Shown here piece by piece: positions 1-21,198 of a DNA stretch of 64,000 bases. Within the stretch, counting starts at the first letter, position 1. Each line of letters starts with the position of its first letter. The translations under genes and the position numbers were made by a program. The stretch spans positions 6,511 through 70,510 of the forward strand of contig JARLIA010000011.1 of NCBI GenBank assembly GCA_031291955.1, written 5' to 3'. The notes beneath the pieces are model-generated. The model made no database searches, was not told the DNA's origin, and saw only the letters and a list, made by a program, of their open reading frames with translations. This stretch comes from Minisyncoccota bacterium. GTDB lineage: Bacteria; Patescibacteriota; Minisyncoccia; Moranbacterales; UBA2206.

Positions 1-28
1 TTAAAACTTTTCCAGGCACTTAGAGCCT
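1..28. repeat. Boundary repeat ttaaaacttttccaggcacttagagcct, an inverted copy of 4832-4859 with one mismatch; possibly truncated by the window edge
   Basis: Reverse complement of positions 1-19 equals 4841-4859 except one base. The core ggcacttagagcct also recurs at 4868-4881. Confidence 0.5.
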
Positions 29-107
29 CAATACCGACAAGCGCGCAACTCCCAAAAGAAAAATATAGTTTTAAAATTAACTAAGTAATTAATTTATTCA
101 AAAACAT

Positions 108-848
108 ATGTTTCAAAAACTTCTTTCCAGAATGTCCAGAAAGGCTGTGGCCGGCCTGGTCTTCGGCGTTATGCTGGCTTTGGGCGCCCTTATGGCCATC
201 GCTTTCACTGAACCGTCCACTTCTCCTTCCAGCATGCAGGAACCCCTTAATTCCAGTTCTACTGGCAATCTCAATAACGAAAAAAACGGCTCCGGGTCGG
301 GGACGAATGACACGCCGTACACGCAAATCCTGGGCGGCGTGGATGATTATAATAATAACTCCACGATGCCAAGCGACACGTATTCCGCCTCTTGGACGAC
401 GTGTAATTCCGGAAACAGTTATTGCGGCACGGGCGACGCGACCAATGCCAACAAGCAAGATCCCAACACCGGCCTGACCTGGTCGAACTGGCTTGATTCG
501 GGGAACAGCCACGACTGGTTTTGGGCCAACAACTGCGCGGAACCGGGGAGCGCCAGCGACCCCGGCACGTGCGTCAACAATGGAGACGCGGCCTGTCAAT
601 GTGTGAAACTGACCAGCTCAAAAACCGGTTGTGAAGCGCTGAGCGGCTGGCGCCTGCCATATCAGAAAGAACTGATGCAATCCTATATTGACGGATCCTG
701 GGGAAATCTATCTTCGGCTAACTACAGCTATTGGTCGTCTACTACCAACTCGTACAATACCCAGAGTGCTTGGTTCGTGTACCAGAACTACGGCAACACG
801 AACTACAACATTAAGACGGGTACCACTAAAGTCCGGTGCGTCCGTTAG
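108..848 (+). CDS. DGR target protein: N-terminal signal/TM segment, Ser/Thr-rich linker and C-terminal DUF1566 (Lcl C-terminal, C-type-lectin-like) domain carrying the variable region
   Basis: 246 aa. Hydrophobic N-terminus AVAGLVFGVMLALGALMAIAF. Motifs GLTW, WRLPYQKEL, YWSSTT and terminal KVRCVR are typical of DUF1566. The last ~45 codons are repeated at 2363-2513. Confidence 0.75.
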   Translation: MFQKLLSRMSRKAVAGLVFGVMLALGALMAIAFTEPSTSPSSMQEPLNSSSTGNLNNEKNGSGSGTNDTPYTQILGGVDDYNNNSTMPSDTYSASWTTCNSGNSYCGTGDATNANKQDPNTGLTWSNWLDSGNSHDWFWANNCAEPGSASDPGTCVNNGDAACQCVKLTSSKTGCEALSGWRLPYQKELMQSYIDGSWGNLSSANYSYWSSTTNSYNTQSAWFVYQNYGNTNYNIKTGTTKVRCVR

Positions 849-860
849 TCTTGTGGCAAC
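709..860 (+). repeat. DGR variable region (VR), including a conserved 3' end that runs ~12 nt past the stop codon (IMH-like)
   Basis: Direct repeat of 2363-2513. Differences are concentrated at positions that are A in the TR copy. Confidence 0.7.
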
Positions 861-906
861 GATTTGGTGATTTGATCATTCGGGTGATTTGGTTATTTGA
901 ATTATT

Positions 907-949
907 TAAGGTTCAACCTTTGGCTAGCCAAAGGTTGAACCTTAGGAAG
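907..949. repeat. 48-bp perfect palindrome family (cttcctaaggttcaacctttggct|agccaaaggttgaaccttaggaag), copy 1; outer 5 nt of the left arm absent
   Basis: Self-complementary; followed by cctcttt then ATG of the KilA-N ORF. Confidence 0.8.
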
Positions 950-956
950 CCTCTTT

Positions 957-1718
957 ATGACAAAAAGAAAAAAAGAAATAAACATAAAAGGCACGATAGT
1001 AGCTTTCTTTTCCGAGAAGGATAATGATTTTATTTGTTTGACTGACATGGCGAAATTCAAGGCTTATGATAGCGGAGTCGTTATCTCCAATTGGCTGACC
1101 ACGAAATATACCGTACAATTTATGGGCGCATGGGAACAATTGCATAATCAAAATTTTAATCTTATGGAATATCATAAGATTAAAAATGAAGTTGGCACCA
1201 ATGGGTTTATCGTTTCTTCGTCTATGTGGATCAGAAAGACAAATGCCATAGGCATTAGATCCAGCGCGGGCAGATATGGCGGTACTTTTGCTCATAAAGA
1301 CATCGCTTTCGAATTTGCAACTTGGCTCTCTCCGGAGTTTAAGCTTTATTTGATCAAAGAATTTCAAAGGCTGAAGATTGAAGAAAATGACCGGCTGACG
1401 CTTGGCTGGGATACAAAAAGAATGCTGACAAAAATAAATTATCGCATCCATACTGATGCGATCAAGGCTCACATAATTCCTAGCCGTATTTCAAGGGTTC
1501 AGGAAAATAATGTATACGCGAGCGAAGCTGATGTTTTAAATATGGCTTTATTTGGAATGACGGCGAAAGTTTGGCGAGACAAAAATTCAAAACTTGCGGG
1601 AAATATACGGGATTACGCGGATGTGACACAATTGGTCTGCCTGTACACGCTTCCTAAGGTTCAACCTTTGGCTAGCCAAAGGTTGAACCTTAGGAAGCCT
1701 CTTTATGGCTCGCTATAA
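957..1718 (+). CDS. KilA-N domain protein; C-terminal 20 aa encoded by read-through of palindrome copy 2
   Basis: 253 aa. GTFAHKDIAFEFATWLSPEFKLYLIKEF resembles the KilA-N/APSES DNA-binding core. AGGAAG lies 7 nt upstream of the ATG. Confidence 0.55.
   Translation: MTKRKKEINIKGTIVAFFSEKDNDFICLTDMAKFKAYDSGVVISNWLTTKYTVQFMGAWEQLHNQNFNLMEYHKIKNEVGTNGFIVSSSMWIRKTNAIGIRSSAGRYGGTFAHKDIAFEFATWLSPEFKLYLIKEFQRLKIEENDRLTLGWDTKRMLTKINYRIHTDAIKAHIIPSRISRVQENNVYASEADVLNMALFGMTAKVWRDKNSKLAGNIRDYADVTQLVCLYTLPKVQPLASQRLNLRKPLYGSL
1650..1697. repeat. 48-bp perfect palindrome, copy 2
   Basis: 24-bp arms with no loop; identical to 4306-4353; followed by cctcttt then ATG of avd at 1705. Confidence 0.85.
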
Positions 1719-2064
1719 CCACCTTCTTGTTTTCCAGCGGTCTTATGACTTGAATCTGGAAATATATCGCACGACCCACAATTTCCCTCGGGAATATAAA
1801 TATAGTTTGGGACAAAAAATGAAAGAAATTTCCGCGGAACTTTTGGATTGGATCGTGGTGACCAATTCCCAAAAAGACAAGACGCCCTATTTTTCCAAAA
1901 TAAAAATGCAGATCGAAAGATTGCGCATCCAGATCCGGGTGGCGTATGATTTGAAAATAATCAAAAGCCAAAGATTGGAATTTTTGAACCGGATCATCGA
2001 AGAAATTTCCATGCAGGTCAGTGGCTGGGAAAACTGGGCGAAGACTCAGGATGCAAAGGCTTAG
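1705..2064 (+). CDS. avd: Avd-like accessory variability determinant (four-helix-bundle protein family)
   Basis: 119 aa. N-terminal LLVFQRSYDLNLEIYRTTHNFPREYKYSLGQKMKE matches the four-helix-bundle / 23S-IVS protein family that includes DGR Avd. Lies between VR and TR. Confidence 0.7.
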   Translation: MARYNHLLVFQRSYDLNLEIYRTTHNFPREYKYSLGQKMKEISAELLDWIVVTNSQKDKTPYFSKIKMQIERLRIQIRVAYDLKIIKSQRLEFLNRIIEEISMQVSGWENWAKTQDAKA

Positions 2065-2084
2065 GCTCTAAGAGCCTAAGCCTT
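2056..2084 (+). terminator. Perfect hairpin (13-bp stem, 3-nt loop) overlapping the avd stop codon; no U-tract
   Basis: aaggcttaggctc-taa-gagcctaagcctt. The core ggctctaagagcc is related to the boundary repeat core. Confidence 0.35.
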
Positions 2085-2362
2085 TGGGTTTCCGCGCTCG
2101 GTTCCCAGTTCTTTGAAAATTTAGAGAAGAAGATTTGGCGAAGCCAGAATTTTTATTTCGATTTCGGCCTGACAGTCGGGACAAATAAAAAGAGAGCATC
2201 GAATCGTTGCGGTTCCGCCTGCTTGATGGCGTTGGTTTTTGGAAAAGTTCGTTTCGATAAAAAAATATCAAACGCGCGACTGGCGTCAAGAGCATTAAGT
2301 TGCTTTGAACCATACTCAATTTCGGTTGAGATTGGTTCAGTTGAGGAAAAATGGTGGAATGA

Positions 2363-2513
2363 TATCTTCGGCTAACAACAACTATTGGTCGTCTACTACC
2401 AACTCGAACAATACCCAGAATGCTTGGAACGTGAACCAGAACAACGGCAACACGAACAACAACAATAAGACGAACACCAACAAAGTCCGGTGCGTCCGTT
2501 AGTCTTTGGCAAC
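2363..2513 (+). repeat. DGR template repeat (TR), AAC-codon-rich
   Basis: ~151-bp direct repeat of VR. Encodes an N-rich pseudo-peptide (NNNYWSSTTNSNNTQNAWNVNQNNGNTNNNNKTNTNKVRCVR). 14 adenine positions differ from VR. Confidence 0.75.
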
Positions 2514-2628
2514 TATTCACTTTTTACCGCTGGCAATGCTGGCTTCGCCAAGCCTTTTTCGGGAAAAATTTCCAAGCAAAAAACCCGCTTGCGCGGATTT
2601 CTTGACGAGCACCAACTGGTGCAGGACT

Positions 2629-2769
2629 CGGACTTGTCATTCCTATGCAGTAATACTAGCAGAGAATGGAAAATATGTCAAATTTGGTTATTCACACGAT
2701 TGTGGAGATGAGGGGAATCGAACCCCCGGGCTCTGGAATGACAAGTCCGAACCCGCACCAAGCCATCCC
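2629..2769. other. Structured region between TR and RT, including a minus-strand tRNA-like acceptor/T-arm minihelix
   Basis: 15-bp inverted repeat (2629-2643 cggacttgtcattcc / 2735-2749 ggaatgacaagtccg) encloses a T-arm-like hairpin. The minus strand of 2702-2769 folds as GGGGAUG...GGGGGUUCGAUUCCCCU-CAUCUCC-A with no anticodon arm. Its T-arm is identical to that of tRNA-Glu at 59094. Confidence 0.35.
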
Positions 2770-2815
2770 CACAACGAAAATATCATAACACAAAAATAAG
2801 CAAGCGGCAAAAAAA

Positions 2816-3938
2816 TCATTTTTTAACTCTAAAATAATAAAAATCAAGGGACGATGGTTCAAGATAAGATTTCAACACGCCGAAATGTCTGGTGTAAAGC
2901 GACTTTCGCAGGCGCACCGTGTCGGCATGGCGGAATTGACCGTAGTAGGAATTTATGACGGATAAAATATTCTGAAGATCTTTTTGGAAAGTTTCCGGAG
3001 AATCGGGGAGGGGAGAATCGTTAAATTTTTTCAGCTTTTCTTTGAGATGGTTCACCACTCTTCGTCGGATGAGAGAATAGCCGGGCTTTATGATAAACCC
3101 GACAAAATTAATTCCACGACAGACGGATTGTTGGACGGATTTTCTCGGATGAAGAGTGAGTTGCAGTTCTTTTTTCAAAAAAATATCGATTCGTTTTTTC
3201 CAAATTTGAAGCTGGCGGGGATTTTTGCCAATCAAGATAAAATCATCGACATAGCGCAGATAAAATTTCACCCCCAAATCGTGTTTTACGAATTGATCGA
3301 GCCGATTGAGATATATATTGGCGAAAAACTGGGAAGTCAAATTGCCGATCGGAAGCCCCCGATCGGGCGAAATCCTAAAAAGGGTTTTGTTTTTAGGAAT
3401 GAGTTTGGCCAGATTCGGGTTGCCTTTGCGATAATAATTTTTGGTCGGATCGTGAAAAATTATTTTTTCGGCCAGCCATAAGATTTCCGGATTTCTTACC
3501 TGTTTTTTTGATGGCCGCGAAAAGAATATTTTTATTGAGCGACATAAAAAAAGCGGCAATGTCCATTTGGAGATAATGAGCGGGATGGGAAAAATTTTCA
3601 GTGGCGGTTCTTAAGGATTTTTTGAGATATTTTATGGCGATGTGAGAACCTTTGCCTTTTCGGCAGGCGAAAGAGTGAAAAATGAATTTTTTTTCGAAAA
3701 TCGGTTCCAGATAGCTGACGAGCAGGTGATGGACAATCCTATCGCGAAAATCAGCGGCGAAAATTTCGCGCGGCTTGGGAATAGTTACCACAAAACAAAT
3801 GGATTGCCCGGGATGATAAACGCGGTCTTGAAGCTCGCGTTCCAGTTTCAAGAGTTCATATTCAAAATTTAGCTCGATTCTGGCGGCATTGGCGGTTTTT
3901 CTTTTCCGTTTTCGGCAATCGTGATAGGCTTTTAACAA
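2816..3938 (-). CDS. DGR-type reverse transcriptase, interrupted by a +1 frameshift at the T7 run 3504-3510
   Basis: N-terminal ORF (3393-3938) has RDRIVHHLL, SFACRKGKGSHIA and LQMDIAAFF (RT motifs 1-3). C-terminal ORF (2816-3559) has GLPIGNLTSQFFANIYL, YLRYVDDFILIG (YxDD), GINFVGF and SYYGQFRHAD. Removing one A from the A7 run on the coding strand gives a continuous ...AAIKKQVRNPEILWLAEK... Confidence 0.8.
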
Positions 3939-3982
3939 ATTTTGAAAAGTAAAATAAGTAACGGCGCAAGATTTTGCGTCGC

Positions 3983-4004
3983 CTCTCTCTCTCTCTCTCT
4001 CTCT
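3983..4004. repeat. (CT)11 dinucleotide microsatellite in the divergent RT / transposase promoter region
   Basis: Uninterrupted ctctct... tract 45-66 nt upstream of the RT ATG (minus strand) and ~115 nt upstream of the transposase ATG. Confidence 0.9.
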
Positions 4005-4119
4005 CGATTTCCGAAATTATTTTTTCCTCCTCCATTTTTTGTTTTTCTATGTTATTATAATAACACAGTCAAAAAAAGAGCTAAACAAAAAAAACAGACC
4101 TCGGAGGTCTGTCAACCAA

Positions 4120-4794
4120 ATGAGAAAAACCGAGTTTGCCAACGAGGAATACTATCATATTTACAATCGCGGGGTAGACAAGCGGGAAGTGTTTGGCCAT
4201 GCCAATGATTATGAAAGATTTTTGCTTGGTATGGATTTGTTGAATGACGAGGATGACGGACTGATGCTTCTTTGGAGGGACTTGCACAAAAATGGGGCGG
4301 CCGGGCTTCCTAAGGTTCAACCTTTGGCTAGCCAAAGGTTGAACCTTAGGAAGCCTCTCGTTGATATCATCGCTTATTGTCTCAACCCCAATCATTATCA
4401 TTTCATCTTGAAGCAAAATAAAGACAAGGGGATAGAAAAATTTATGCAAAAATTGAGCACCAGCCATACGATGTATTTCAATAAAAAATATCAGAGAAGC
4501 GGCGCGCTATTTCAAGGCCGGTATAAATCCATCCACATCGACTCCAATGAATATCTGCTGTATCTCTCGTGCTATGTCAACGCCAATCATTTCATTCACG
4601 GGTATAATAGTGTTGAGGACTGGCCATATTGCAGTTATCCGGATTATCTCGGCAAAAGAAACGGAAAATTGTGCGGCAAAGAAATGATACTCGGGCAGTT
4701 TGACAATGATTTTTCCCAATATGAAAAATATCTGAATGACAACGCGCTCCACTTCAAAGAGAAAAAGGAAATGGAAAAATATATCTTGGAATAA
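4120..4794 (+). CDS. HUH tyrosine transposase, IS200/IS605 TnpA / REP-associated (RAYT-like, COG1943) family, with an in-frame palindrome insertion
   Basis: YHIYNRGVDKREVF, AYCLNPNHYHFIL (HuH) and ALFQGRYKS (catalytic Tyr context). Start taken at MRKTEF. The 48-bp palindrome 4306-4353 is translated in-frame as LPKVQPLASQRLNLRKP between the N-terminal motif and the HuH motif. Confidence 0.75.
   Translation: MRKTEFANEEYYHIYNRGVDKREVFGHANDYERFLLGMDLLNDEDDGLMLLWRDLHKNGAAGLPKVQPLASQRLNLRKPLVDIIAYCLNPNHYHFILKQNKDKGIEKFMQKLSTSHTMYFNKKYQRSGALFQGRYKSIHIDSNEYLLYLSCYVNANHFIHGYNSVEDWPYCSYPDYLGKRNGKLCGKEMILGQFDNDFSQYEKYLNDNALHFKEKKEMEKYILE
4306..4353. repeat. 48-bp perfect palindrome, copy 3 (inside the transposase CDS)
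   Basis: Identical to 1650-1697. Confidence 0.9.
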
Positions 4795-4831
4795 AAGGCT
4801 GCAAGAGCCAAGCTCCTTAATGATGGGAGTT

Positions 4832-4881
4832 AGGCTCTAAGTGCCTGGAAAAATTTTAACATTGCTTGGCACTTAGAGCCT
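4832..4881. repeat. Inverted-repeat hairpin (14-bp stem aggctctaagtgcc / ggcacttagagcct, 22-nt loop); right boundary repeat of the DGR module
   Basis: Lies between the transposase stop and the giant gene start; the left arm plus loop is the reverse complement of window positions 1-28. Confidence 0.6.
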
Positions 4882-4887
4882 TGAAGA

Positions 4888-7800
4888 GTGCGTAAAGTAA
4901 AAGAATTAAAAAAAATTAAAGTGACCTCCAAAACAAAAATTATTTTATACTCCTTGGCTTTTTTCCTGATCTTTTTGGGTTTTTCCGGCAATGCCAATGC
5001 CGCTCAAATTGGCAACACCATCGATTGGGCCTGGAGCGGGCAGTTGGGATGGATCCATTTTAACGGCAGCGCAGCCACGCCGGATTATGGCGTGACGACG
5101 ACCGACGGCACTGGTCTAACTGGCTATGCCTGGAGCGAAAAAGGCGGCTATATCAAATTTTCCGGCACTTGTTCGCAAGCCGGCGGATGCCCGGGCGGAG
5201 GGAATACATATCAAGTGACAGCTTCCGGCACGTGCGCAGTTGGTCGGGAATGTCTTTCCGGCTGGGCTTGGGGAGCGGGAATCGGCTGGATCCATTTTGC
5301 CGCCAGCGGTTCAAACTATGCCAACAATTCCAATACCACCTACGGCGTCTATATCGATTCCCAAGGATTTTTCAGGGGCTACGCCTGGAATGACCAATTC
5401 GGCTGGATCCATTTCGGTGGAGCGTGTACCGGAGGAGTTGGAACTTGCCTGAATGGAGAAGCGACTTACGCGGTTCATGAAGGTCCTAAAAACGTCTACT
5501 ATTCCGTCGGCCAATCGGTGTCCAATCTCATGACCGGTTCGCCGACGATGAATCTGACGAGTGGCGTGGCGACTTTTTCCGTGGCGCAGACGGGAAACAT
5601 CGGGGTGGGCGACCGGGTGACGTATAACACTTCCAGCGTCGCTTACATTGCATCGAAAACCGACTCGACCGGGACTGATTGGCAACTGGTGACGGCCACC
5701 GGCGGAACGCCGGCGGATGTCTCTGTCGCGACGGTCAATTCCATCACCCACGAATACACTTCACTTGCGGCGGCGATTGCCGGAGCCACAGACGTCAACC
5801 ATCTCAACAACACCGATCTCACAGTCGCCAACGTGGTTTTGAATATTCCTTGTTATTATGATTCCGGATCGGACACGACAGCGGTGACGGTTTCCGGCTA
5901 CACGACTTCGGCGGCGGATTACATCAAAATTTACACGCCGTCCAACACAACTACTTATCCGGCTGAAGCCAATAATTCGCAGCGGGCGATGGGGAAGTGG
6001 GACGCGACGAAATATAATCTTCAAGCAGGGGCTTCGTCATCCAGTCTTTTGAATATTCTTGTTCCTGATGTGAAAATTGACGGGCTGCAATTATATCAAT
6101 CGGTAGGATATTATTCATCTGTAGTAGGATTGAATAGCAGCGGTGTTGTCAATCTCAGTGTGTCTAATAGTATTATAAGAGCATTCAGTGGCAATACAGG
6201 AAATTATGGCATAATTATTGAAGGCGGAAGCACTGGAAGTGTTTATAATATTTACAATAACATTGTCTATGGGGCGAGTTATGATTCTGGGTGTAATGGC
6301 CTAATGGTTGAGAATAGTTCGGTGTTTTTGTATAACAATACCTTTTACGGCAACTATACGGGAATTTATGGCTATAGCGGCACACTTATAGCTAAAAATA
6401 ACATTGTCTATAACAACACCACCGACTATTCCGGCTCATTCGATTCTTCTTCCACTAACAATTTGAGCAAAGATGCGACTGCGCCGGGGTCTAATGCGGA
6501 AATAAATCGGACCGTCCAATTCGCCAACGCCGGCGCCAATGATTTTCATCTTTCCCTTGCCGACACGGCCGCCCTGGGACACGGCGCGAATCTCTCCGTC
6601 GATACCAATTTTGCTTTCGATACTGACATTGACGGCCAAACGCGACCGACGATATGGGACATCGGAGCGGACCAATCCGCCACGGCGATATATTATTCCG
6701 TTGGGCAAAATACCAACGATCATTCTTCTGGCGGGAATGTTTCCATCTCTTCCGGCGAAGCGACTTTTGACACGCCTCAAACGGCGACGAACTTGGGCGT
6801 GGGAGATGTGCTCACCGCCGGAGGCAACGCTTATTACATTTCCAAAAAAATCGACACTTCCCATTGGGATGTTATTACGGCTCTTGGCGCGACGCCGGCG
6901 GATTTATCTTCCACATCGGTTACCTCCATTACTCACGCCTTCGCGTCTTTGGAAGGTGCGGTCGATGCCAGCACTGCCTCTGGCGCGTTCGACAGTTCGC
7001 ATCTCAACACCAAAGATCTGGTGGCGAACAATTATCAATTGAATATTCCTTGCTATTACGATACCGGTGCGGACACGACAGCGGTGACGATTTCGGGATG
7101 GACAACAGGCGCTTCCAATTACATTCGTATTTACACGCCGAAGAGTCTGACGACGGAAGCCAATTTTTCGCAAAGGGCGACGGGTAAGTGGGATAATTCG
7201 AAATATTCAATTTCAGCCAATGCTAACGTTATTTATGTGCAGATTGAAAATGTCCATGTAGACGGGTTGCAAGTCGAACTTAATCCAACATCAGATGATG
7301 GATATTTAGGAATAGGAGTAAATTCCCAATCATACATCATCGATGGGTTTGAAGCTTCAAATAATATCGTTAAACAGACAACTCAAAAAGTTGATGCGTA
7401 CGGGGTAATTTGTTATACAGGAGCATCTACTTGTAAAATATGGAATAACATTGTTTATGGCTTTAGTTTAGGATCGGCAGGAAGAGGGTCTATTTTGGTG
7501 GGCGGGTCAAGCAGTACTGTGGCCTATGTTTACAATAATACGACCTATGGAAATTATATCGGAATACAGGAATTGGCAGGCGGGGAAATATTTCTCAATA
7601 ACAATCTTTCATACAATAACGGGACCGACTATGACGGCTCTTTCGATCCGTCTTCCACCAACAACTTGAGTAAAGACGCGACTGCGCCGGCCTACGGGAC
7701 GTATTATCGTAACGCGACGGTAACTTTCGTTGACGCTACGAACGATGATTTCCATCTGGCTTCCACCGATACGGGAGCGATTGGCAACGGCGCGAATTTG

Positions 7801-10800
7801 ATCAGCGACACTTATTTGCCTTTTTCCACTGACATCGACGGCCAAACGAGACCGGCGACGGGAGCCTGGGATATCGGGGCGGATGAAAGCACTAGCAGGG
7901 TCTACTATTCCGTCGGTCAATCCGCCAGCAATCTCATGACCGGCGCGCCGACCATGACCATGGTTTCCGGCGCGGCGGTTTTGTCGGTGGCGCAGACGGG
8001 AAACATCGGGGTCGGTGATCGGGTGACTTACAACACCTCGCAAATCGCTTACATCGCTTCCAAAACAGATTCATCCGGCACCAAATGGAATTTGGTGACA
8101 GCTCTCGGCGCGACACCGGCCGATGTGACGACGGCCGTGACTGTCAATTCCATCACGCACGAATACACTTCGCTTGCCGCGGCGATTGCCGGCGCCAGCG
8201 GCGCCAACCACATCAACAATCTCGATCTTACGGCCGCCAACGTGGTTTTGAATATTCCTTGCTATTATGATTCCGGCCCGGATACGACGGCGGTGAATGT
8301 TTCCGGTTTCACAACCAGCGCGACAAACTACATCAAAATTTATACCCCCCACATCACAACTACTTATCCGGCCGAAGCCAATTTTTCGCAGAGGGCGATG
8401 GGGAAGTGGGATAATGGGAAGTATAGTTTGGAAGTTTCAGGTCCTTGGAAAAACGCGATTGATAATAATGTAATTTATACCCAGGTTGTCGGCTTGCAAA
8501 TCAGCCTGGCAAACGCCGCTGGTTTTGTCGGGGATATCCGCGATGATGCCGGCGGACTTATGGCCAGCTTTAATTTAATCACGGGAGACGACACGGGATA
8601 TGGAATTATAAGCGGAACTTATATATACAACAATATAATATATAACTTTCCAAACAACTATGGAATTTATATCACCTCGGGTTATGTTTATAATAATACT
8701 GTTTATAATGCGGGTATTGCATACGCTTGGTCAGGCGGTAACGGAACATTTTTAGAAAATAATATTGCTCAAGATACGGTAACTGGATATAGCAATAATC
8801 CTCCGGGTGCCAACAATCTTTCCGATCACGCCGACGCGCCCGGGTCCAATCCGCAAAATTCCAAAACCGTCCAATTCGCCGACGCGGCCAAGTCTGATTT
8901 CCATTTGAGCCCGAATGACTCGGTCGCGCGGGGAGCAGGAACAAATCTTTCCGCCGATTCCAATTTAGCGTTCAACACCGACATCGACGGCCAAACCAGA
9001 CCAGCCACAGGCGCTTGGGACATCGGCGCCGACCAATCCGCCACAGCCATATATTATTCCGTCGGCCAAAATACTTCCGATCACAAAACCGGCACGCCAA
9101 CAGTGACGATTGCCGGAAACGCGGTGACGTTCAGCACGGGCCAGACGGCCACCAATATGGGAGTGGGAGACAAAATTACTTATACCGTGAGCTTGACCAA
9201 CTATTCTTGCTATATTACTTCAAAGACATCCACCGACGGCACCGGCTGGATGTGCGAAACGGCCACCGGTGGCACGCCGACCGCCGCGCCCGGTGGTTCG
9301 GCTGTCGTTTCCATTACTCACGCGTTCAGTTCTCTCAATGCGGCCGTCTCCGGCGCGTCAGGCGCGAGTTATCTCAACACTTCGGATTTATACACCAACA
9401 ATTACCAATTGAATTTTCCTTGCTACTACGATTCAGGCCCGGATATGACGACGGTGACAGTTGGCGGTGGCTACACAACGGCCGAGCCGAACTATATTAG
9501 AGTTTATACGCCGTATAACACAATAACGGAAGTGAATCAGTCACAAAGAGCGATGGGGAAGTGGGATAATTCTAAATATAACGCCAGCGGATATATAAAT
9601 TTAGGGACAAACTATGTATGGATTGATGGTTTGCAAATTGTAAATTATTCATCCGGCGGCTATCCTTCGGCAATCGAGGCGAATGGGACTGCCACTCTCG
9701 GTCTTCGAGTATCCAATAGTATCATTTTTATGGACACTTCGGGAACGGCTAGTGGCACAGGAATTAAATCGGGCGCTTCGATGACGGTCTGGAATAATGT
9801 TATATATATGGCAAATACTACCAGTGCGGGGATGTATTTTAGCTACGGTAAATTTTATATTTACAACAATACGGTATATGGAGGAAGCGACGGAATTAGC
9901 GGTGCAAACCTTGGCGAAGTAATGTATGCCAAGAATAACCTTTTTTATGGTAATAATCTTGATTATCACGGCGCGTTCGACTCTTCTTCCACCAACAACT
10001 TGAGCAAAGACGCCACCGCGCCGGGCAGCAATCCGATAAACTCAGCCACCGTAAATTTTGCCAACGCGACGGCCAATGATTTTCATCTTTCCCCCACTGA
10101 CACGGCCGCATTGGGACACGGCGCCAATTTGAGCGCCGATTCCAATTTAACGTTTAATACCGACATTAATGGCAACAGCCGCGGGAGTTTTTGGTCGATC
10201 GGGGCGGATAATGGACCAGTGGCGACCATTAACGCGCCGCACGCGACAAACACCAGCGCCAGCACCGGATTGGATTCGGGTCTCGTCGGCTACTGGTCGT
10301 TTGACGGTCCGACCATTTCCGGGACAACAGTGAAAGATCTCTCCGGCCAAAACAACAACGGAACCAACTCCGGCGCCACGCCGACTATTGGGGCGCGGGG
10401 GCAGGCATTGAGTTTTGACGGGACGAGCAGTGGTGTCGCAACTGGTAATATATACCCAACCGGAAGCGGGGTTTCTTATGCTTTTTGGATGAAAACACCG
10501 CAAACGACTAATGCTATGCCTGTTATGGGTTGGGGATATGATCAATGTTGGGTCAGTAACGTAGGTTCGCATAAAATCAACTGCACTAATGATGGCGGAG
10601 GTTATGACGGAGTGACTTCCAGCATTAGCGTGGATGACAATAAATGGCACTTTATTGTTTTTGCTTCAGCGGGTGGAAGCAATGGAACCGTGACGCTTTA
10701 CGTGGATGGACAAAATCAGGGCAGCAACACTGAGACGCTAGGCATATCAAACGATTTTGCTATAAAATGGGGTTCGGTAGGATTCGACAGTCGCCACTAC

Positions 10801-11592
10801 GCCGGAGCACTTGATGAAGGCAGGGTTTATAATCGCGTTTTGTCGGCGGCTGAAGTGAATGACCTTTATCATCTCGGCGGGCAAACCGTCGGCGCGCCGC
10901 AGGCGGCGACGGGACCGACTTCCGGACTGGTGGGTCACTGGACGTTTGACGGCCCGACCATTTCCGGCACAACCATTGCCGACACCAGCGGGAGCGGCAA
11001 CAACGGCACCAACAATGGCGCCACGCCGGTGATGGGGAAATTGGGGCAGGCGATGAGTTTTGACGGGACGGATGATTATGCGTGGATAAACAATTCTAGT
11101 GCTCTTGATTTTGGCTCCGGAGATTTTTCCGTTGGGATGTGGGTGAACAAAAAGGCGAACTCTTCTGGTTGGAGTAATACTTTCGGTGTGAATAAATGGA
11201 ATACCGGAGAATCTCCTGGTACAAATGAATGGGGTCTTAACCTTACTAATGCCGGAAATGATAACACTTTCAGCTTTAATATCGAAGATGGAGCTACAAC
11301 ATATTCCGTTGCCGATACGACCATTTTTCTCTTGAATAAATGGTATCACGTGGAGGGCGTTAAATCGGGAAGTTATTTGTATATTTATGTAGATGGAGTT
11401 TTGAAAAATTCAAATAACATAGGCAGTCATTCTGTTAACAATGTTGGGGATGCTATCCAGATTGCGAGAAATGGAGGGGGGTCGATTCACTATACGAAAG
11501 CCGATTTCGACGATGTCCGCGTTTATAACCGCGCGCTGTCGGCGCAAGAGGTGGGGGATTTGTATCAGGCGGGAAGTGTGACGATGAAATAA
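4888..11592 (+). CDS. Giant secreted surface protein (2234 aa): signal peptide, four tandem ~400-aa parallel beta-helix-like modules (ABAB) and two C-terminal LamG (concanavalin-like) domains
   Basis: N-terminal KTKIILYSLAFFLIFLGFSGNANA. Repeated NNIVYG / NNTFYGN / DIGADQ beta-helix signatures. C-terminal LVGYWSFDGPTISGTTVKDLSGQNNNGTN and LVGHWTFDGPTISGTTIADTSGSGNNGTN are LamG-like. Confidence 0.85.
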   Translation: MRKVKELKKIKVTSKTKIILYSLAFFLIFLGFSGNANAAQIGNTIDWAWSGQLGWIHFNGSAATPDYGVTTTDGTGLTGYAWSEKGGYIKFSGTCSQAGGCPGGGNTYQVTASGTCAVGRECLSGWAWGAGIGWIHFAASGSNYANNSNTTYGVYIDSQGFFRGYAWNDQFGWIHFGGACTGGVGTCLNGEATYAVHEGPKNVYYSVGQSVSNLMTGSPTMNLTSGVATFSVAQTGNIGVGDRVTYNTSSVAYIASKTDSTGTDWQLVTATGGTPADVSVATVNSITHEYTSLAAAIAGATDVNHLNNTDLTVANVVLNIPCYYDSGSDTTAVTVSGYTTSAADYIKIYTPSNTTTYPAEANNSQRAMGKWDATKYNLQAGASSSSLLNILVPDVKIDGLQLYQSVGYYSSVVGLNSSGVVNLSVSNSIIRAFSGNTGNYGIIIEGGSTGSVYNIYNNIVYGASYDSGCNGLMVENSSVFLYNNTFYGNYTGIYGYSGTLIAKNNIVYNNTTDYSGSFDSSSTNNLSKDATAPGSNAEINRTVQFANAGANDFHLSLADTAALGHGANLSVDTNFAFDTDIDGQTRPTIWDIGADQSATAIYYSVGQNTNDHSSGGNVSISSGEATFDTPQTATNLGVGDVLTAGGNAYYISKKIDTSHWDVITALGATPADLSSTSVTSITHAFASLEGAVDASTASGAFDSSHLNTKDLVANNYQLNIPCYYDTGADTTAVTISGWTTGASNYIRIYTPKSLTTEANFSQRATGKWDNSKYSISANANVIYVQIENVHVDGLQVELNPTSDDGYLGIGVNSQSYIIDGFEASNNIVKQTTQKVDAYGVICYTGASTCKIWNNIVYGFSLGSAGRGSILVGGSSSTVAYVYNNTTYGNYIGIQELAGGEIFLNNNLSYNNGTDYDGSFDPSSTNNLSKDATAPAYGTYYRNATVTFVDATNDDFHLASTDTGAIGNGANLISDTYLPFSTDIDGQTRPATGAWDIGADESTSRVYYSVGQSASNLMTGAPTMTMVSGAAVLSVAQTGNIGVGDRVTYNTSQIAYIASKTDSSGTKWNLVTALGATPADVTTAVTVNSITHEYTSLAAAIAGASGANHINNLDLTAANVVLNIPCYYDSGPDTTAVNVSGFTTSATNYIKIYTPHITTTYPAEANFSQRAMGKWDNGKYSLEVSGPWKNAIDNNVIYTQVVGLQISLANAAGFVGDIRDDAGGLMASFNLITGDDTGYGIISGTYIYNNIIYNFPNNYGIYITSGYVYNNTVYNAGIAYAWSGGNGTFLENNIAQDTVTGYSNNPPGANNLSDHADAPGSNPQNSKTVQFADAAKSDFHLSPNDSVARGAGTNLSADSNLAFNTDIDGQTRPATGAWDIGADQSATAIYYSVGQNTSDHKTGTPTVTIAGNAVTFSTGQTATNMGVGDKITYTVSLTNYSCYITSKTSTDGTGWMCETATGGTPTAAPGGSAVVSITHAFSSLNAAVSGASGASYLNTSDLYTNNYQLNFPCYYDSGPDMTTVTVGGGYTTAEPNYIRVYTPYNTITEVNQSQRAMGKWDNSKYNASGYINLGTNYVWIDGLQIVNYSSGGYPSAIEANGTATLGLRVSNSIIFMDTSGTASGTGIKSGASMTVWNNVIYMANTTSAGMYFSYGKFYIYNNTVYGGSDGISGANLGEVMYAKNNLFYGNNLDYHGAFDSSSTNNLSKDATAPGSNPINSATVNFANATANDFHLSPTDTAALGHGANLSADSNLTFNTDINGNSRGSFWSIGADNGPVATINAPHATNTSASTGLDSGLVGYWSFDGPTISGTTVKDLSGQNNNGTNSGATPTIGARGQALSFDGTSSGVATGNIYPTGSGVSYAFWMKTPQTTNAMPVMGWGYDQCWVSNVGSHKINCTNDGGGYDGVTSSISVDDNKWHFIVFASAGGSNGTVTLYVDGQNQGSNTETLGISNDFAIKWGSVGFDSRHYAGALDEGRVYNRVLSAAEVNDLYHLGGQTVGAPQAATGPTSGLVGHWTFDGPTISGTTIADTSGSGNNGTNNGATPVMGKLGQAMSFDGTDDYAWINNSSALDFGSGDFSVGMWVNKKANSSGWSNTFGVNKWNTGESPGTNEWGLNLTNAGNDNTFSFNIEDGATTYSVADTTIFLLNKWYHVEGVKSGSYLYIYVDGVLKNSNNIGSHSVNNVGDAIQIARNGGGSIHYTKADFDDVRVYNRALSAQEVGDLYQAGSVTMK

Positions 11593-16614: not shown

Positions 16615-19257
16615 GACAAAGCGTTAAAAAAATGCAAGTATTTGCCTCACGGATTGTACCAATATTTGGAAATCGCTAAGGCTGCTTAATGATAAAATCA
16701 ACTATAAAATTTAGAAGCAAAAGCGGGTGAAACTTCGTGTTTAAGTTTGTCTTAAACGAGGACCCGTCGGGTTCTTTTTTAATTCGCGCGGAAATCATTA
16801 TAATCATTGTCGCGATTATAATCATTATAAAAATTTCCGCATGAACGAACTTTGACAATTTAGGTCTTGATCAAAAATATTCAGTTCCGCTGTCAGCGGA
16901 AATGGAAGTGGATATTTGCGATCAGTCCTCTGATATCTTCGCAATAGGGTATCAGAGATGTAGGTAATGCAATATGCAAACTGTGTAGTTGGCAATTTTG
17001 GTAATTGCTAACTGCTAACCTGCCCGCAATGCTTCGCAATAGCGATGCAGGCGGGCTAAAAGAAGAGCGGTAATATTAATGCATACGGTGGATGCCTTGA
17101 CATCAAAGAGCGATGAAGGACGTAGCAGTCTGCGATAAGCTTCGGGGAGGTGACGAGCAACCTTTGATCCGGAGATTTCCGAATGGGACAACCCAGCCCG
17201 TAAGGGTTATCATTAACTGAATTCATAGGTTAATGAGGCGCACCCGGTGAATTGAAACATCTTAGTAGCCGGAGGAAGAGAAAACAACAGTGATTTCGCA
17301 AGTAGTGGCGAGCGAAAGCGGAACAGCCTTGAGTCATTAGCGATTTTGTTAGCTGAACGTTTTGGAAAGAACGGCCAGAGAGAGTGAAAGCCTCGTAGGC
17401 GAAAACGGAATCGTGGAACCAGGACTCAAAACAAGTAGGGCGGGACCGGAGAAATCCCGTTTGAAGATGGGAGCACTATCTCCCAAGGCTAAATATCTTT
17501 GATGATCGATAGCGAACTAGTACCGTGAGGGAAAGGTGAAAAGCATCCCGATGAGGGAGATGAAATAGTATCTGAAACCGTATGCTAACGAAGAGTTAGA
17601 GCTCCGACACTTGTGTCGGGGTGATAGCGTGCTTTTTGTAGAACGATCCAGCGAGTTAGTTCTATGCGGCTTGGATAAGCGACGTTGTCGTGTATCCGTA
17701 GTGAAAGCGAGCCTTAACCGGCGAATATGTCGTATGGACTAGACCCGAAGCCAGGTGAGCTATTTATGAGCAGGGTGAATTTACTGTAAAAGGTAAAGGA
17801 GGCCCGAACCCACGCACCGTGCAACATGCGGGGATGACTTGTGAATAGAGGAGAAATTCCAATCGAACTTGGCGATAGCTGGTTCTTCCCGAAATAGCTT
17901 GAGGGCTAGCGTTGGGCAACTATGTTTCGGAGGTAGAGCTACTGAATGAGGATTCGCGGTTCGCCGTAGGATTCTCAACCAAACTCCGAATTCCGAAATA
18001 ACTATCCCAGCAGTCAGTACTCCGGGGCTAAGCTCGGAGCACAAGAGGGAAAAAGCCCATGACCGCCGTCTAAGGTCCCAAAATCTATGTTAAGTGGAAA
18101 AGGAGGTGAAGTTTCTTATACACCTAGGAGGTTGGCTCAGAAGCAGCCATCCTTTAAAGAGTGCGTAACAGCTCACTAGTCTAGAGACTTCGCGCCGAAA
18201 ATTCAACGGGGCTCAAACATAGTACCGAAGACGCGGATTTGATATGTATTTATACATATTGAGTGGTAGGGAAGCGTTCCATATGCGCTGAAGCGCCATG
18301 CGTGAGCAGACGTGGAGTGTATGGAAGTGAGAATGCTGGAACGAGTAACCGCAATTGGGGTGAGAACCCCCAACACCGAAAGTCTAAGGTTTCCTGGGCA
18401 ATGGCAATCATCCCAGGGTTAGCCGGGCCTAAGGCGAGGCCGAAAGGCGTAGTCGATGGACATATGGTTAATATTCCATAGCTTTCACATTATTCGATGG
18501 AGTGACGCATCGCTGTACTTCTTGCCGATTATTGGATTTCGGTAGGAATAGCGAGGTGGCCAGACAGGCAAATCCGTTTGGCAATACACCAAGCCGTTTC
18601 TCGAATTCCGGTTCGCCGGAAGAAGAGGAAGGAGCGCGGTGCCAGGAAAAGCTTCTAAGGTTCGTAATGTGAAATCCGTACTAAAACCGACACAGGTAGA
18701 CTGGGCGAGTAGCCTAAGGTGAACGAGTGAACCTTCGTTAAGGAACTCGGCAAAATAGCGTCCGTAACTTAGGAATATGGACTACCGGTGCTTAGCTTGC
18801 TAAGCGCTGGTCGCAGCGAAAGATACCAAGCGACTGTTTACCAAAAACACAGGTCTCTGCAAACCCGCAAGGGGATGTATAGGGGCTGACGCCTGACCAG
18901 TGCCGGAACGTTAACGGGAGCGGTGAAAGCTTATCCCCGAAGCGCCGGTGAACGTCAGCGATAACTATAATCGTTCTAAGGTAGCGAAATTCCTTGACAG
19001 GTAAGTTCTGTCCCGCATCAAAGGCGTAACGACTTGGTAACTGTCTTAACGAAGAGCTCGGTGAAATTGCAATGACGGTAAAGATGCCGTCGACCTGCAG
19101 CAAGACGAAAAGACCCCGTGGAGCTTTACTATAGCTTGGCATTGCGTTTGAGGTTATGCTGCCTAGAATAGGTGGGAGCCTTTGAAATCCCGATTCAGGT
19201 CGGGATGGAGGCAACAGTGTAATACCACTCTGTGTGATTTTAAACGCTAACCCTGGG

Positions 19258-19375
19258 CTGTTAGAAAATTGGAAACATTTTTTTAACTCCTCAGCTTTAG
19301 ATTCAAGTAATAGTGTAAAAAGTATCTATGATGATATAAGTTGAGAGTTATGGAATGATTCTTTCTAGTTTTCTA
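19258..19375 (+). other. AT-rich ~118-nt insertion/expansion segment within 23S, replacing a short hairpin upstream of GGACAGUGCCUGGUGGGUAGUUUGACUGGGGCGG
   Basis: Alignment by eye to the E. coli 23S sequence in this block shows ~35 nt there versus ~150 nt here. Confidence 0.4.
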
Positions 19376-19398
19376 CCAGTCCGGGGACAGTGCCTGGT

Positions 19399-19431
<33 letters not shown>

Positions 19432-19592
19432 GGCAACGGAGGCGTTTACAAAGGTAGGCTAGGTCCGGATGGAAATCGGGCCGGTAGTGCAAACGCATAA
19501 GCCTGCTTTACTGCAAGACTCATTAGTCGATCAGTCACGAAAGTGGAAGTTAGTGAACCGACCATCGCTCATAGGAGCGTGGAAGATCATCA

Positions 19593-19625
<33 letters not shown>

Positions 19626-19650
19626 CCTCCCAAGAGTCCACATCGACGGA

Positions 19651-19711
<61 letters not shown>

Positions 19712-19749
19712 TGGCTGTTCGCCAATTAAAGTGGTACGCGAGCTGGGTT

Positions 19750-20470
19750 CAAACCGTAGAGAAGTCGAAAGTTTATAAAGTTATAAAGTTCATAAAGTCG
19801 ACTTTTGTACAGTTTGAACCCGAGGAAAGACATCAAATAATCACGGCGGCCTTGAAGAGTAATCTTCAAGTGCGAAACTGACTCATATCGATGAAGTCCT
19901 GTTGCATGACAAACTGTCATGTGCTAGGATAATATCGAGGGAAGTCGTGTATGCTAGAATCAATTTCGTCAATTGAAAAATCTTATTTGGCTGGTTTTTT
20001 GGATGCTGATGGGAGCATTTACGTGCAAGCAAAACCAAACGAGACTTATCGTTTCGGTTTTCAAATCGCGTCGTACATAGTTTTCTATCAATCGTCTAAA
20101 GATGAAAAAGCCTTTTCCGACATGTGTTCCATTATTAAACTGGGGCACAAGCGTGTCAGAAAAGACGGTATCATAGAATATATAATCAGCAGGCAAGAGG
20201 AAATTATTCAATTTATTAATTTAATTGAGCCTTATATAAAACTGAAAAAAGCTCAATTGGAATTATTGAAAAAGATAATTGATCTTAAGAAGAAAGTCCA
20301 GGATAAAAAAGATTTTATAAAATTGATAAATTTGATTGATAAATTTCGCGAATTAAATTATTCAAAGAAGCGAAAAAAACGTACATTGACCCCGTAGAGA
20401 CTAAACGTCAGTCTCCTAATTCAATAAAATTAGGATGAAGGTATAGTCCAATGCACGTAGCAATACGTGG
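19750..20470 (+). mobile_element. Group I intron in 23S domain V/VI (inserted within GAGCUGGGUU|..ACGUCGUGAGACAG), encoding a LAGLIDADG endonuclease
   Basis: Flanking exon sequence rejoins to the conserved 23S block. The 5' exon ends in U and the intron ends in G (cgtgG|aaaacatgcgtgagacag). Confidence 0.65.
19951..20397 (+). CDS. Intron-encoded LAGLIDADG homing endonuclease
   Basis: 148 aa; LAGFLDADGSI motif. Confidence 0.8.
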   Translation: MLESISSIEKSYLAGFLDADGSIYVQAKPNETYRFGFQIASYIVFYQSSKDEKAFSDMCSIIKLGHKRVRKDGIIEYIISRQEEIIQFINLIEPYIKLKKAQLELLKKIIDLKKKVQDKKDFIKLINLIDKFRELNYSKKRKKRTLTP

Positions 20471-21088: not shown

Positions 21089-21198
21089 TTTGGTGGTTCT
21101 AGCGAAGTGGTCACACCCGATCCCATTCCGAACTCGGTCGTTAAGCACTTCCGCGCCGATGGTAGCTCTTCGCGAGCAAGAGTAGGTCGCCGCCAGAA
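21089..21198 (+). rRNA. rrf: 5S rRNA
   Basis: TTTGGTGGTTCTAGCGAAGTGGTCACACCCGATCCCATTCCGAACTCGGTCGTTAAGC...GCCGATGGTAGC...GCCGCCAGA matches the 5S consensus. Confidence 0.8.

Follow-up and report, generated by a model that had tools for sequence, protein, structure and literature searches.

The diversity-generating retroelement (DGR) of Bordetella phage BPP-1, ordered mtd-avd-TR-brt, is the paradigm against which we compare a DGR cassette from a Minisyncoccota bacterium (assembly GCA_031291955.1, contig JARLIA010000011.1, positions 6,511 to 70,510; this stretch of 64,000 nucleotides is called the window below). The complete cassette lies within the first 4.9 kb of the window. Like BPP-1, it combines a bRT-related reverse transcriptase (RT), the accessory protein Avd, differences between a template repeat (TR) and a variable repeat (VR) that are specific to TR adenines, and a VR at the 3' end of a gene for a C-type-lectin-like target; in both systems the GC-rich end that resembles the initiation of mutagenic homing (IMH) element is slightly different between VR and TR. 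Unlike BPP-1, the window element is chromosomal and belongs to Patescibacteria, its RT lies on the opposite strand, convergent with the TR, and begins with a (GA)n repeat, and its structured RNA domain stands 5' of the TR rather than in the 3' spacer.

The DGRs of the Candidate Phyla Radiation (CPR) offer a second comparison. In the survey of Wu et al. 2018 (PMC5758913), these elements have avd cassettes, components on different strands, open reading frames (ORFs) nested between components, and frequent changes other than adenine-to-N. The window has the same traits, its KilA-N ORF being such a nested ORF. It departs from the form B3, TR-(avd)-RT, which the main text of that study gives as common in CPR: here avd and TR share a strand and the RT alone is reversed.

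Two further kinds of system provide comparisons for the RT gene itself. Simple sequence repeat (SSR) contingency loci include the CT/GA repeats of Helicobacter, in the 5' coding regions of outer-membrane genes, and the tetranucleotide repeats of Haemophilus. As in these loci, a pure short-unit repeat lies just past the start codon, varies in length among near-identical genomes and sets the frame of the ORF; unlike in them, the gated gene would be a mutagenic RT, not a surface antigen or restriction enzyme, and the hosts are uncultured Patescibacteria. Programmed frameshifting or transcriptional slippage on A runs is known from dnaX and from insertion sequence (IS) elements. The RT gene likewise has a run of seven A (A7) at a frame junction, where a single slip restores the protein; unlike in those genes, the run is not conserved in homologues, and conservation is the defining expectation for a programmed site.

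We consider it probable that the window carries a chromosomal DGR of a Patescibacteria (Paceibacteria-like) genome, in the normal arrangement of its clade, whose RT cannot currently be made on account of two frame breaks, one at the A7 run and one at a GA tract that would serve as a length switch. We also lean, with less assurance, toward a broader proposal: that DGRs of this clade gate their mutagenic RT by a (GA)n repeat between start codon and enzyme, as a stochastic contingency switch, and carry an uncatalogued RNA 5' of the TR that is possibly the counterpart of the BPP-1 spacer.

The cassette and its host

On the plus strand the order is target gene with VR, KilA-N ORF, avd and TR, and the RT gene occupies the minus strand (Table 1). 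The locus has an RT of the DGR clade, VR differences at TR adenines, a VR at the 3' end of the target gene, and Avd; VR diversity at TR adenines within a population, a further hallmark of DGRs, is seen in consensus sequences of a sister lineage (L168-172) and not in the window lineage. Besides its Pfam match, Avd matches NCBIfam DivGenRetAVD (1.4e-19) with 70 bits, under the cut-off of 80. The closest RTs (78-80% identity) and the target protein fall in bins labelled Moranbacteria, Paceibacterota and Parcubacteria, from Patescibacteria/CPR metagenomes. MDR3583291.1, a protein annotated in a metagenome-assembled genome (MAG) of Candidatus Paceibacterota, has the same sequence as the window's target protein.

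Related loci and assemblies, named L001-L175, served for comparison; about 170 were fetched and oriented by RT. Their TR/VR pairs, which adjoin the RT in most loci, were detected by adenine-biased mismatches. L001 and L002 are the Logan assemblies of SRR23300979 and SRR23300977 and equal window positions 1678-4333 and 1678-4005, respectively.

Table 1. Features of the DGR cassette and its surroundings, in window coordinates.
Feature	Positions	Strand	Evidence
DGR target gene; signal peptide and DUF1566/Lcl_C C-type-lectin-like domain, 246 aa, secreted	108-848	+	Pfam Lcl_C 9.7e-11
VR, including GC-rich IMH-like end 831-860 and extra G at 853	709-860	+	Alignment to TR
Insertion relative to sister loci: KilA-N ORF (957-1718) between two 54-nt palindromic repeats (901-954, 1649-1702)	901-1702	+	
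avd (accessory variability determinant)	1705-2064	+	Pfam bAvd 2.5e-16, 60.6 bits against a curated cut-off of 40
5' domain of the TR-RNA (predicted): two hairpins and a three-way junction	2126-2361	+	Covariance model R1, 262 bits
TR with IMH*-like end (GGCAAC TATTC)	2363-2513	+	Alignment to VR
3' arm of the predicted 22-bp outer stem (5' arm ~2126-2147), enclosing 5' domain and TR	2539-2560	+	Inverted repeat I7; RNAalifold
Transfer-messenger RNA (tmRNA)-like tRNA domain without mRNA part, 71 nt, G3.U70, A73	2700-2770	-	Rfam tmRNA 35.6 bits, E 1.1e-11
RT, C-terminal part, frame c; motifs IGNLTSQFFANIY and YVDD, then thumb	2816-3509	-	ORF, alignment, Pfam
A7 run (T7 on +), lineage-specific +1 insertion splitting the RT	3503-3509	-	Sequence, Logan assemblies
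RT, N-terminal part, frame b, starting just past the GA tract (GDAKSCAVTYFTFQNLLKAYHDC...)	3510-3982	-	Alignment to homologues
(GA)11.5 microsatellite, G(AG)11, 23 nt, read as (Glu-Arg)n, between conserved ATG and RT body	3983-4005	-	
RT gene start region: -10-like TATAAT 4054-4059, leader ATG 4033-4035	4033-4059	-	Conserved in L168-172, L173
REP-type Y1 (IS200-like) transposase gene, conserved neighbour	4108-4794	+	Pfam Y1_Tnp 3e-9; syntenic in L168-L172

The A7 run and the split RT

The original prediction held that the RT is encoded in two overlapping minus-strand ORFs of different frames, 3393-3938 and 2816-3559, and we find both. It also placed an A7 run at the frame junction; the run is there, one base away from the position 3504-3510 that had been given for it (Table 1). 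Removing one A from the run restores, as had been claimed, a continuous and motif-complete protein: the product of 373 aa matches Pfam RVT_1 (E 5.6e-17), has the conserved IGNLTSQFFAN and YVDD motifs, and aligns gap-free over the junction with 16 homologues (...ILFAxIKKQVKNPEILWLAEKII...). Among solved structures, the Bordetella phage bRT comes closest to it (8ub7_A, E 4.6e-38).

Sequencing error, recent inactivation and slippage-dependent expression had all been offered for this split. L001 and L002 are 100% identical to the window and ungapped over the A run, with an agreement that spans 2.3-2.7 kb, and a random homopolymer error is unlikely because these two assemblies of different runs reproduce the A7. 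No intact RT protein of the window lineage exists among 5.8 billion clusters, where the best match is 80% identical; an exact look-up of the C-terminal RT ORF gave no match, and gene callers passed over the RT fragments in L001 and L002. At the same codons the relatives read ATT AAA AAG CAG GTA, ATC AGA AAA GAG ATA, ATC GAA CGG CAA and the like. Since an A run of at least six is found at this site in none of the six relatives examined, conservation of a slippery run is absent among them, and the A7 does not appear to be a conserved slippery sequence. The repaired RT has three private changes at otherwise invariant columns, the fewest of seven relatives, and with no sign of relaxed constraint the lesion would be recent.

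The extra A thus appears to be real, lineage-specific (gained in an A6 run) and recent, and from these alignments a recently inactivated RT fits best, ahead of error or programmed slippage. A split RT made of two polypeptides was also considered and rejected, as no relative shows one.

A GA microsatellite at the start of the RT gene

The RT gene has a second break, upstream of the coordinates covered by the original prediction and absent from it. The conserved leader ATG, 18 nt downstream of the TATAAT box, is one frame off the RT body, from which the GA tract separates it. The leader reads MEEEKIISEI-(ER)n, and one more GA unit would give MEEEKIISEI(ER)nGDAKSCAVTYFTFQNLL...; the 23-nt tract of the window is therefore of an OFF length, in-frame lengths being 25 or 19 nt. 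Homologues indicate that the conserved N-terminal motif VTYFTFQNLLKAY is translated, and between the upstream stop (4017-4019) and this motif there is no ATG, GTG or TTG in frame b. The TATTATAATAACATAGAAAAACAAAAATG box and an M-x-E-K-K-I leader are common to L168-172 and L173.

The position of such tracts is highly specific. This one is the only GA/CT tract of at least six units in the 64-kb window, and 17 of the 19 tracts of that size in 1.35 Mb of related loci lie at the RT-start position. A pure GA tract at the RT start occurs in at least 14 lineages, with lengths of 11-54 nt. Among the 120 closest RT clusters, 36 have an in-frame (ER)n run and another 21 are N-terminally truncated calls. 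The upstream ATG is in frame with the RT in L005, L092 and L009, and out of frame in the window, L168-172, L173, L004, L084, L158, L006 and L012.

Within two sister lineages, nearly identical sequences differ in the state of the gene. L174 and L168 are identical over 1522 nt (0 mismatches) except for a tract of 29 versus 31 nt, so that L174 is ON, with the conserved ATG in frame and a 406-aa RT (P0244), and L168 is OFF. L175 (29 nt, ON, 417-aa RT, P0247) and L084 (33 nt, OFF) are 99.8-99.9% identical. The 31-nt allele is present in at least five assemblies and the 29-nt contig in two samples. OFF alleles are called as N-truncated proteins of 357-368 aa, and clusters at 90% identity contain, side by side with truncated forms, members whose ER runs vary by whole pairs. 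The marks of a contingency locus are thereby distributed over the clade: the window has the pure repeat in 5' coding sequence, with a single tract length seen in its lineage, and the sister lineages have length polymorphism and toggling of the ORF between ON and OFF. In three independent assemblies a break or gap falls exactly at the tract, L002 ending at 4005, L098 starting within it, and L084 having an N gap at 3901-4000 with duplicated tract flanks; such breaks would be expected if tract length were heterogeneous in the sampled populations.

From these comparisons we infer that the GA tract may be a regulatory length switch for the RT frame, and the break that it causes in the window is an OFF state, not decay. 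A uniform programmed frameshift at the tract was rejected: the shift needed is +1 in some lineages and -1 in others. In some lineages (P0063 compared with P0263; L158, L006) ATGs stand in two frames upstream of the tract, so that an RT would result from two of the three phases of the tract, each with its own leader, MFDRETFT(RE)n versus ...LTGRHL(RE)n. A literature search found no paper linking DGR RTs with repeats or phase variation; a mention of the GA tract in Paul et al. 2017 (PMC5436926) is possible.

VR differences and their distribution among lineages

VR and TR run in ungapped register from 709/2363 to 852/2506. They show 13 differences from TR-A to VR-N, or 14 counting the boundary position 708, so that 13-14 of 15-16 substitutions are at TR adenines. 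For a 144-nt repeat, a share of ~87% of differences at adenines of one copy greatly exceeds what chance would give. The VR runs up to the stop codon of the DUF1566/Lcl_C gene, with AAC codons mutable at their first and second positions.

The original prediction had also reported two C-to-T mismatches and a 1-nt indel right after the stop codon, and had taken them to fit ordinary drift. All three are present. The C-to-T differences, at 821 (AAC to GGT) and 827 (AAC to ACT), are silent third-position changes directly 3' of substituted adenines, and the extra G at VR position 853, immediately past the stop codon shared with the TR, sits between that codon and the conserved GGCAAC. The drift reading is not favoured. 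Several non-A changes are frequent in CPR DGRs (PMC5758913), and the active sister L169 has a VR with two non-A changes and zero substitutions elsewhere in 7.1 kb; since nothing else differs there, non-A changes would seem to arise together with homing and not through background drift. In the relative L173, VR and TR likewise differ between stop codon and GGCAAC, and the indel appears to match the expected distinction between IMH and IMH*.

Within the window lineage, no VR difference separates L166, L167 and the MAG protein. L167 carries a single-nucleotide polymorphism (D160G) elsewhere in the target gene, outside the VR, and a search of target-protein clusters for VR variants returned only one variant, with its substitution also outside the VR. 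The VR thus looks frozen in the window population, consistent with a dead RT, and the likely reason is the A7 frameshift. The sister lineage formed by L168, L169, L171 and L172, whose RT is 77% identical to that of the window, behaves differently: compared in pairs over 4.5-7.1 kb, these assemblies show 9-22 differences, none of which lies outside the 148-nt VR; 7 of 9 to 18 of 18 are at TR adenines, and the four assemblies share one TR. Because these differences all lie within the VR and mostly at TR adenines, the convergent design works, and by this comparison it is demonstrably active in the sister lineage. Setting RT integrity against VR diversity, a check that the original prediction had suggested, therefore gives the anticipated outcome over a few consensus assemblies: the sister, uninterrupted at the A7 site, diversifies its VR and the window lineage does not.

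Orientation of the RT across the clade

The RT does lie on the minus strand, convergent with the TR transcript, as had been stated. Its orientation had been presented as a departure from the canonical order, and the comparison with relatives that had been called for points the other way. Where a TR/VR pair is detectable, the TR is opposite to the RT strand in 7 of 7 loci with an RT identity of 60% or more; at 50-59% identity this holds for 8 of 15, and in these loci the opposite-strand TR sits just past the RT 3' end. Below 50% identity the canonical one-strand order VR-TR-RT dominates (81 loci). Near the closest relatives a conserved order is found, with a giant beta-helix/laminin-G protein, the Y1 transposase and the RT, followed by TR, avd and the Lcl_C target in the opposite orientation. 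The literature agrees: PMC5758913 gives separate strands as possible for TR and RT, and components on different strands are listed among the frequent cassette types (PMC11661182). By sequence comparison the convergent RT is the norm of the clade and a known feature of CPR DGRs, no oddity of the window locus.

A structured RNA around the TR

The claim that the TR-RNA is plus-sense is borne out on the plus strand, where a structured and conserved RNA domain directly precedes the TR. Nucleotide conservation is strong over the ~300 nt that separate avd from the TR. RNAalifold predicts that the outer helix, which shows compensatory changes, closes around the domain and the TR, and that the TR 3' end GGCAACTATTC pairs with GAATCGTTGC at ~2201-2210, a pairing invariant in five lineages. 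A small hairpin followed by a T run lies at 2541-2554.

A sequence-only nhmmer profile of the 5' domain reached close relatives only, and the covariance model R1 was built instead. R1 has matches in 14 other loci (15 in total), each directly 5' of the TR and in the same sense as it, with the window as the top match; two of the positive loci have the TR on the RT strand, so the orientation of the RT is immaterial. In the R1 alignment the paired fraction of cells is 94% (slid controls, 41-48%), and compensatory changes are seen at 41 of 52 pairs (slid controls, 11-18), figures that are somewhat inflated by the fitting of the alignment to the model; 0 of 500 shuffles reached the observed value. 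An Rfam scan of positions 1-6000 found no family that matches the TR-RNA, and returned only palindrome-driven microRNA false hits and a sub-threshold tmRNA.

As modelled, the TR-RNA domain is an uncatalogued, conserved and covarying structured RNA of ~430 nt including the TR. By analogy with BPP-1 it could be the clade's counterpart of the avd-TR-spacer RNA, engaged in trans by RT-Avd. A structured RNA 5' of the TR would explain how the RT gene can reside on the other strand.

Proposed mechanism and alternative readings

Based on these observations, we propose that the RT, encoded convergently on the minus strand, would act in trans. Following the BPP-1 paradigm, the TR-RNA would be copied by an RT-Avd complex that makes errors specifically at adenines, and the resulting cDNA would take the place of the VR. 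In the window the seventh A splits the RT coding sequence and the 23-nt GA tract leaves the conserved ATG out of frame, and because of these two breaks the RT cannot be made in this genome. The A7 lesion would be the likely cause of the frozen VR, and the GA tract would be a hypermutable length switch that moves the RT in and out of frame, ON and OFF alleles being present in two sister lineages. Several points weigh against this account. The T7 and the length of the GA tract come only from the consensus of assemblies, a single study is the probable source of both Logan runs and the MAGs, and the stasis of the VR is based on three or four assemblies. A low level of +1 slippage on the A7, by re-pairing of tRNA-Lys or by slippage of RNA polymerase, is possible. 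Dinucleotide tracts are prone to stutter in PCR and assembly, and all four VR-bearing active sister assemblies carry an OFF length, which implies either fast switching or some RT from OFF alleles.

That last observation also supports an alternative view of the GA tract, in which (GA)n is a tolerated (Glu-Arg)n linker or 5' leader, stutter or assembly noise accounts for the ON and OFF alleles, and the RT starts elsewhere; the 36 of 120 homologues that read through the tract in frame would fit it as well. Against it, the DNA of the tract is purely dinucleotide even among lineages whose proteins share just 50% identity, and its length spans 11 to 54 nt. OFF loci have no canonical RT-frame start upstream of the conserved N-terminal motif, the ATG leader comes into frame exactly on loss of one unit (L174), and the OFF length recurs in at least five assemblies; we therefore find the linker reading doubtful. 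The notion that the cassette is an old, decaying remnant of a DGR long in disuse appeals to the same frame break together with that at the A7, to the two non-A mismatches and the indel, and to several lineage-specific insertions (KilA-N, palindromes, the tmRNA-like fragment). Against it, avd, target, TR and TR-RNA domain are intact and score as high as in active relatives (R1, 262 bits), the RT has a single lesion and no excess of substitutions, and the C-to-T changes are silent, stand beside mutated adenines and have parallels in the active sister, so that long disuse is improbable.

Two readings concern the A7 run. As a programmed slippage site, transcriptional or +1 ribosomal, it would yield a low but functional amount of full-length RT; tRNA-Lys re-pairs perfectly one base downstream on AAA AAA A, the shifted product is the exact family consensus, and the clade employs a simple repeat elsewhere in the RT gene. 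Yet the relatives use interrupted codons for the same residues, no stimulatory stop or rare codon follows the run, the ATG is off frame at the GA tract as well, so that two shifts would be needed, and no VR diversity is seen in the window lineage. We judge programmed slippage highly unlikely. The split could instead be an artefact of sequencing or assembly, the true genome having A6 and an intact RT, and the location of the frameshift in a homopolymer and the perfection of the repaired protein, with no other decay, are in keeping with this; the base-for-base agreement of window, L001 and L002 through the run, the missing intact RT of the lineage and a VR that is invariant across samples, as for a dead RT, speak so clearly against it that an artefact is very improbable indeed. 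A recent, genuine loss of the RT frame in an otherwise clade-typical DGR remains our preferred reading.

Insertions and neighbouring elements

The KilA-N insertion is missing from L173 and L168, where merely 64-76 nt separate the target stop from the avd start. A perfect 38-nt palindrome, part of the 54-nt unit, occurs three times in the 64 kb, always inside the cassette (907-944, 1655-1692 and 4311-4348), and its third copy (4305-4358) lies in frame within the Y1 transposase gene, to which it adds ~18 residues (LPKVQPLASQRLNLRKP). The transposase matches NCBIfam REP_Tyr_transpos at 6e-9, under the cut-off, and the palindrome may be an element like the repetitive extragenic palindromes (REP) that is mobilised by it. 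Hairpin repeats of the type GGCTCTAAGTGCC...GGCACTTAGAGCC flank the cassette (1-35, 4825-4881) and follow avd (2056-2090), and in L173, too, avd and TR are followed by similar hairpins. Such repeats are probably bidirectional terminators of these genomes or elements of the REP-like kind. A consensus scan of the locus for promoters and terminators was weakly informative.

The tmRNA-like element scores under the Rfam gathering score of 47 and has a fold z-score of -3.2. Its acceptor stem is 7 bp long, a T-arm is present, and a long capped helix stands where the tag region would be; its G3.U70 wobble and A73 correspond to alanine identity. On the same strand it is flanked by a -10-like box (2787-2782) and a terminator-like hairpin (2591-2573). 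A tmRNA comprises a tRNA-like domain, a tag frame and pseudoknots, and of these the tRNA-like domain alone is present at 2700-2770, where ARAGORN finds no tmRNA. The element is absent from the 9 related DGR loci searched; it is lineage-specific and probably outside the DGR proper.

Beside the Y1 transposase gene lies that of a 2234-aa repetitive secreted protein with beta-helix and laminin-G-like repeats (4888-11592, +), a neighbour kept in L168-L173. In the first 12 kb of the window, the search detected no VR-like copy of the TR beyond the described pair. Farther downstream are a 23S rRNA gene (17065-19817, matching 2753 nt of a 2925-position model) and a 5S rRNA gene (21089-21198), both on the plus strand and ~1.27 kb apart, with no 16S or tRNA spacer nearby, an unlinked rRNA organisation typical of CPR.

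Significance

The window locus itself is ordinary, a clade-typical DGR with an RT that appears recently knocked out by a real 1-nt insertion and a VR that appears frozen. The interest lies in the GA microsatellite that toggles the RT frame in sister lineages and in the uncatalogued TR-RNA domain. According to a 2024 preprint, the regulatory mechanisms of DGR retrohoming are something that still "awaits discovery". The ON and OFF alleles are set apart by GA units, in one pair by one unit alone, which suggests a simple stochastic control of DGR mutagenesis, and the frozen VR of the window set against the diversifying VR of its sister is a natural experiment on RT loss. The covarying RNA that flanks the TR is a candidate priming and recognition RNA of CPR DGRs, and it could improve DGR annotation where the RT lies on the other strand.

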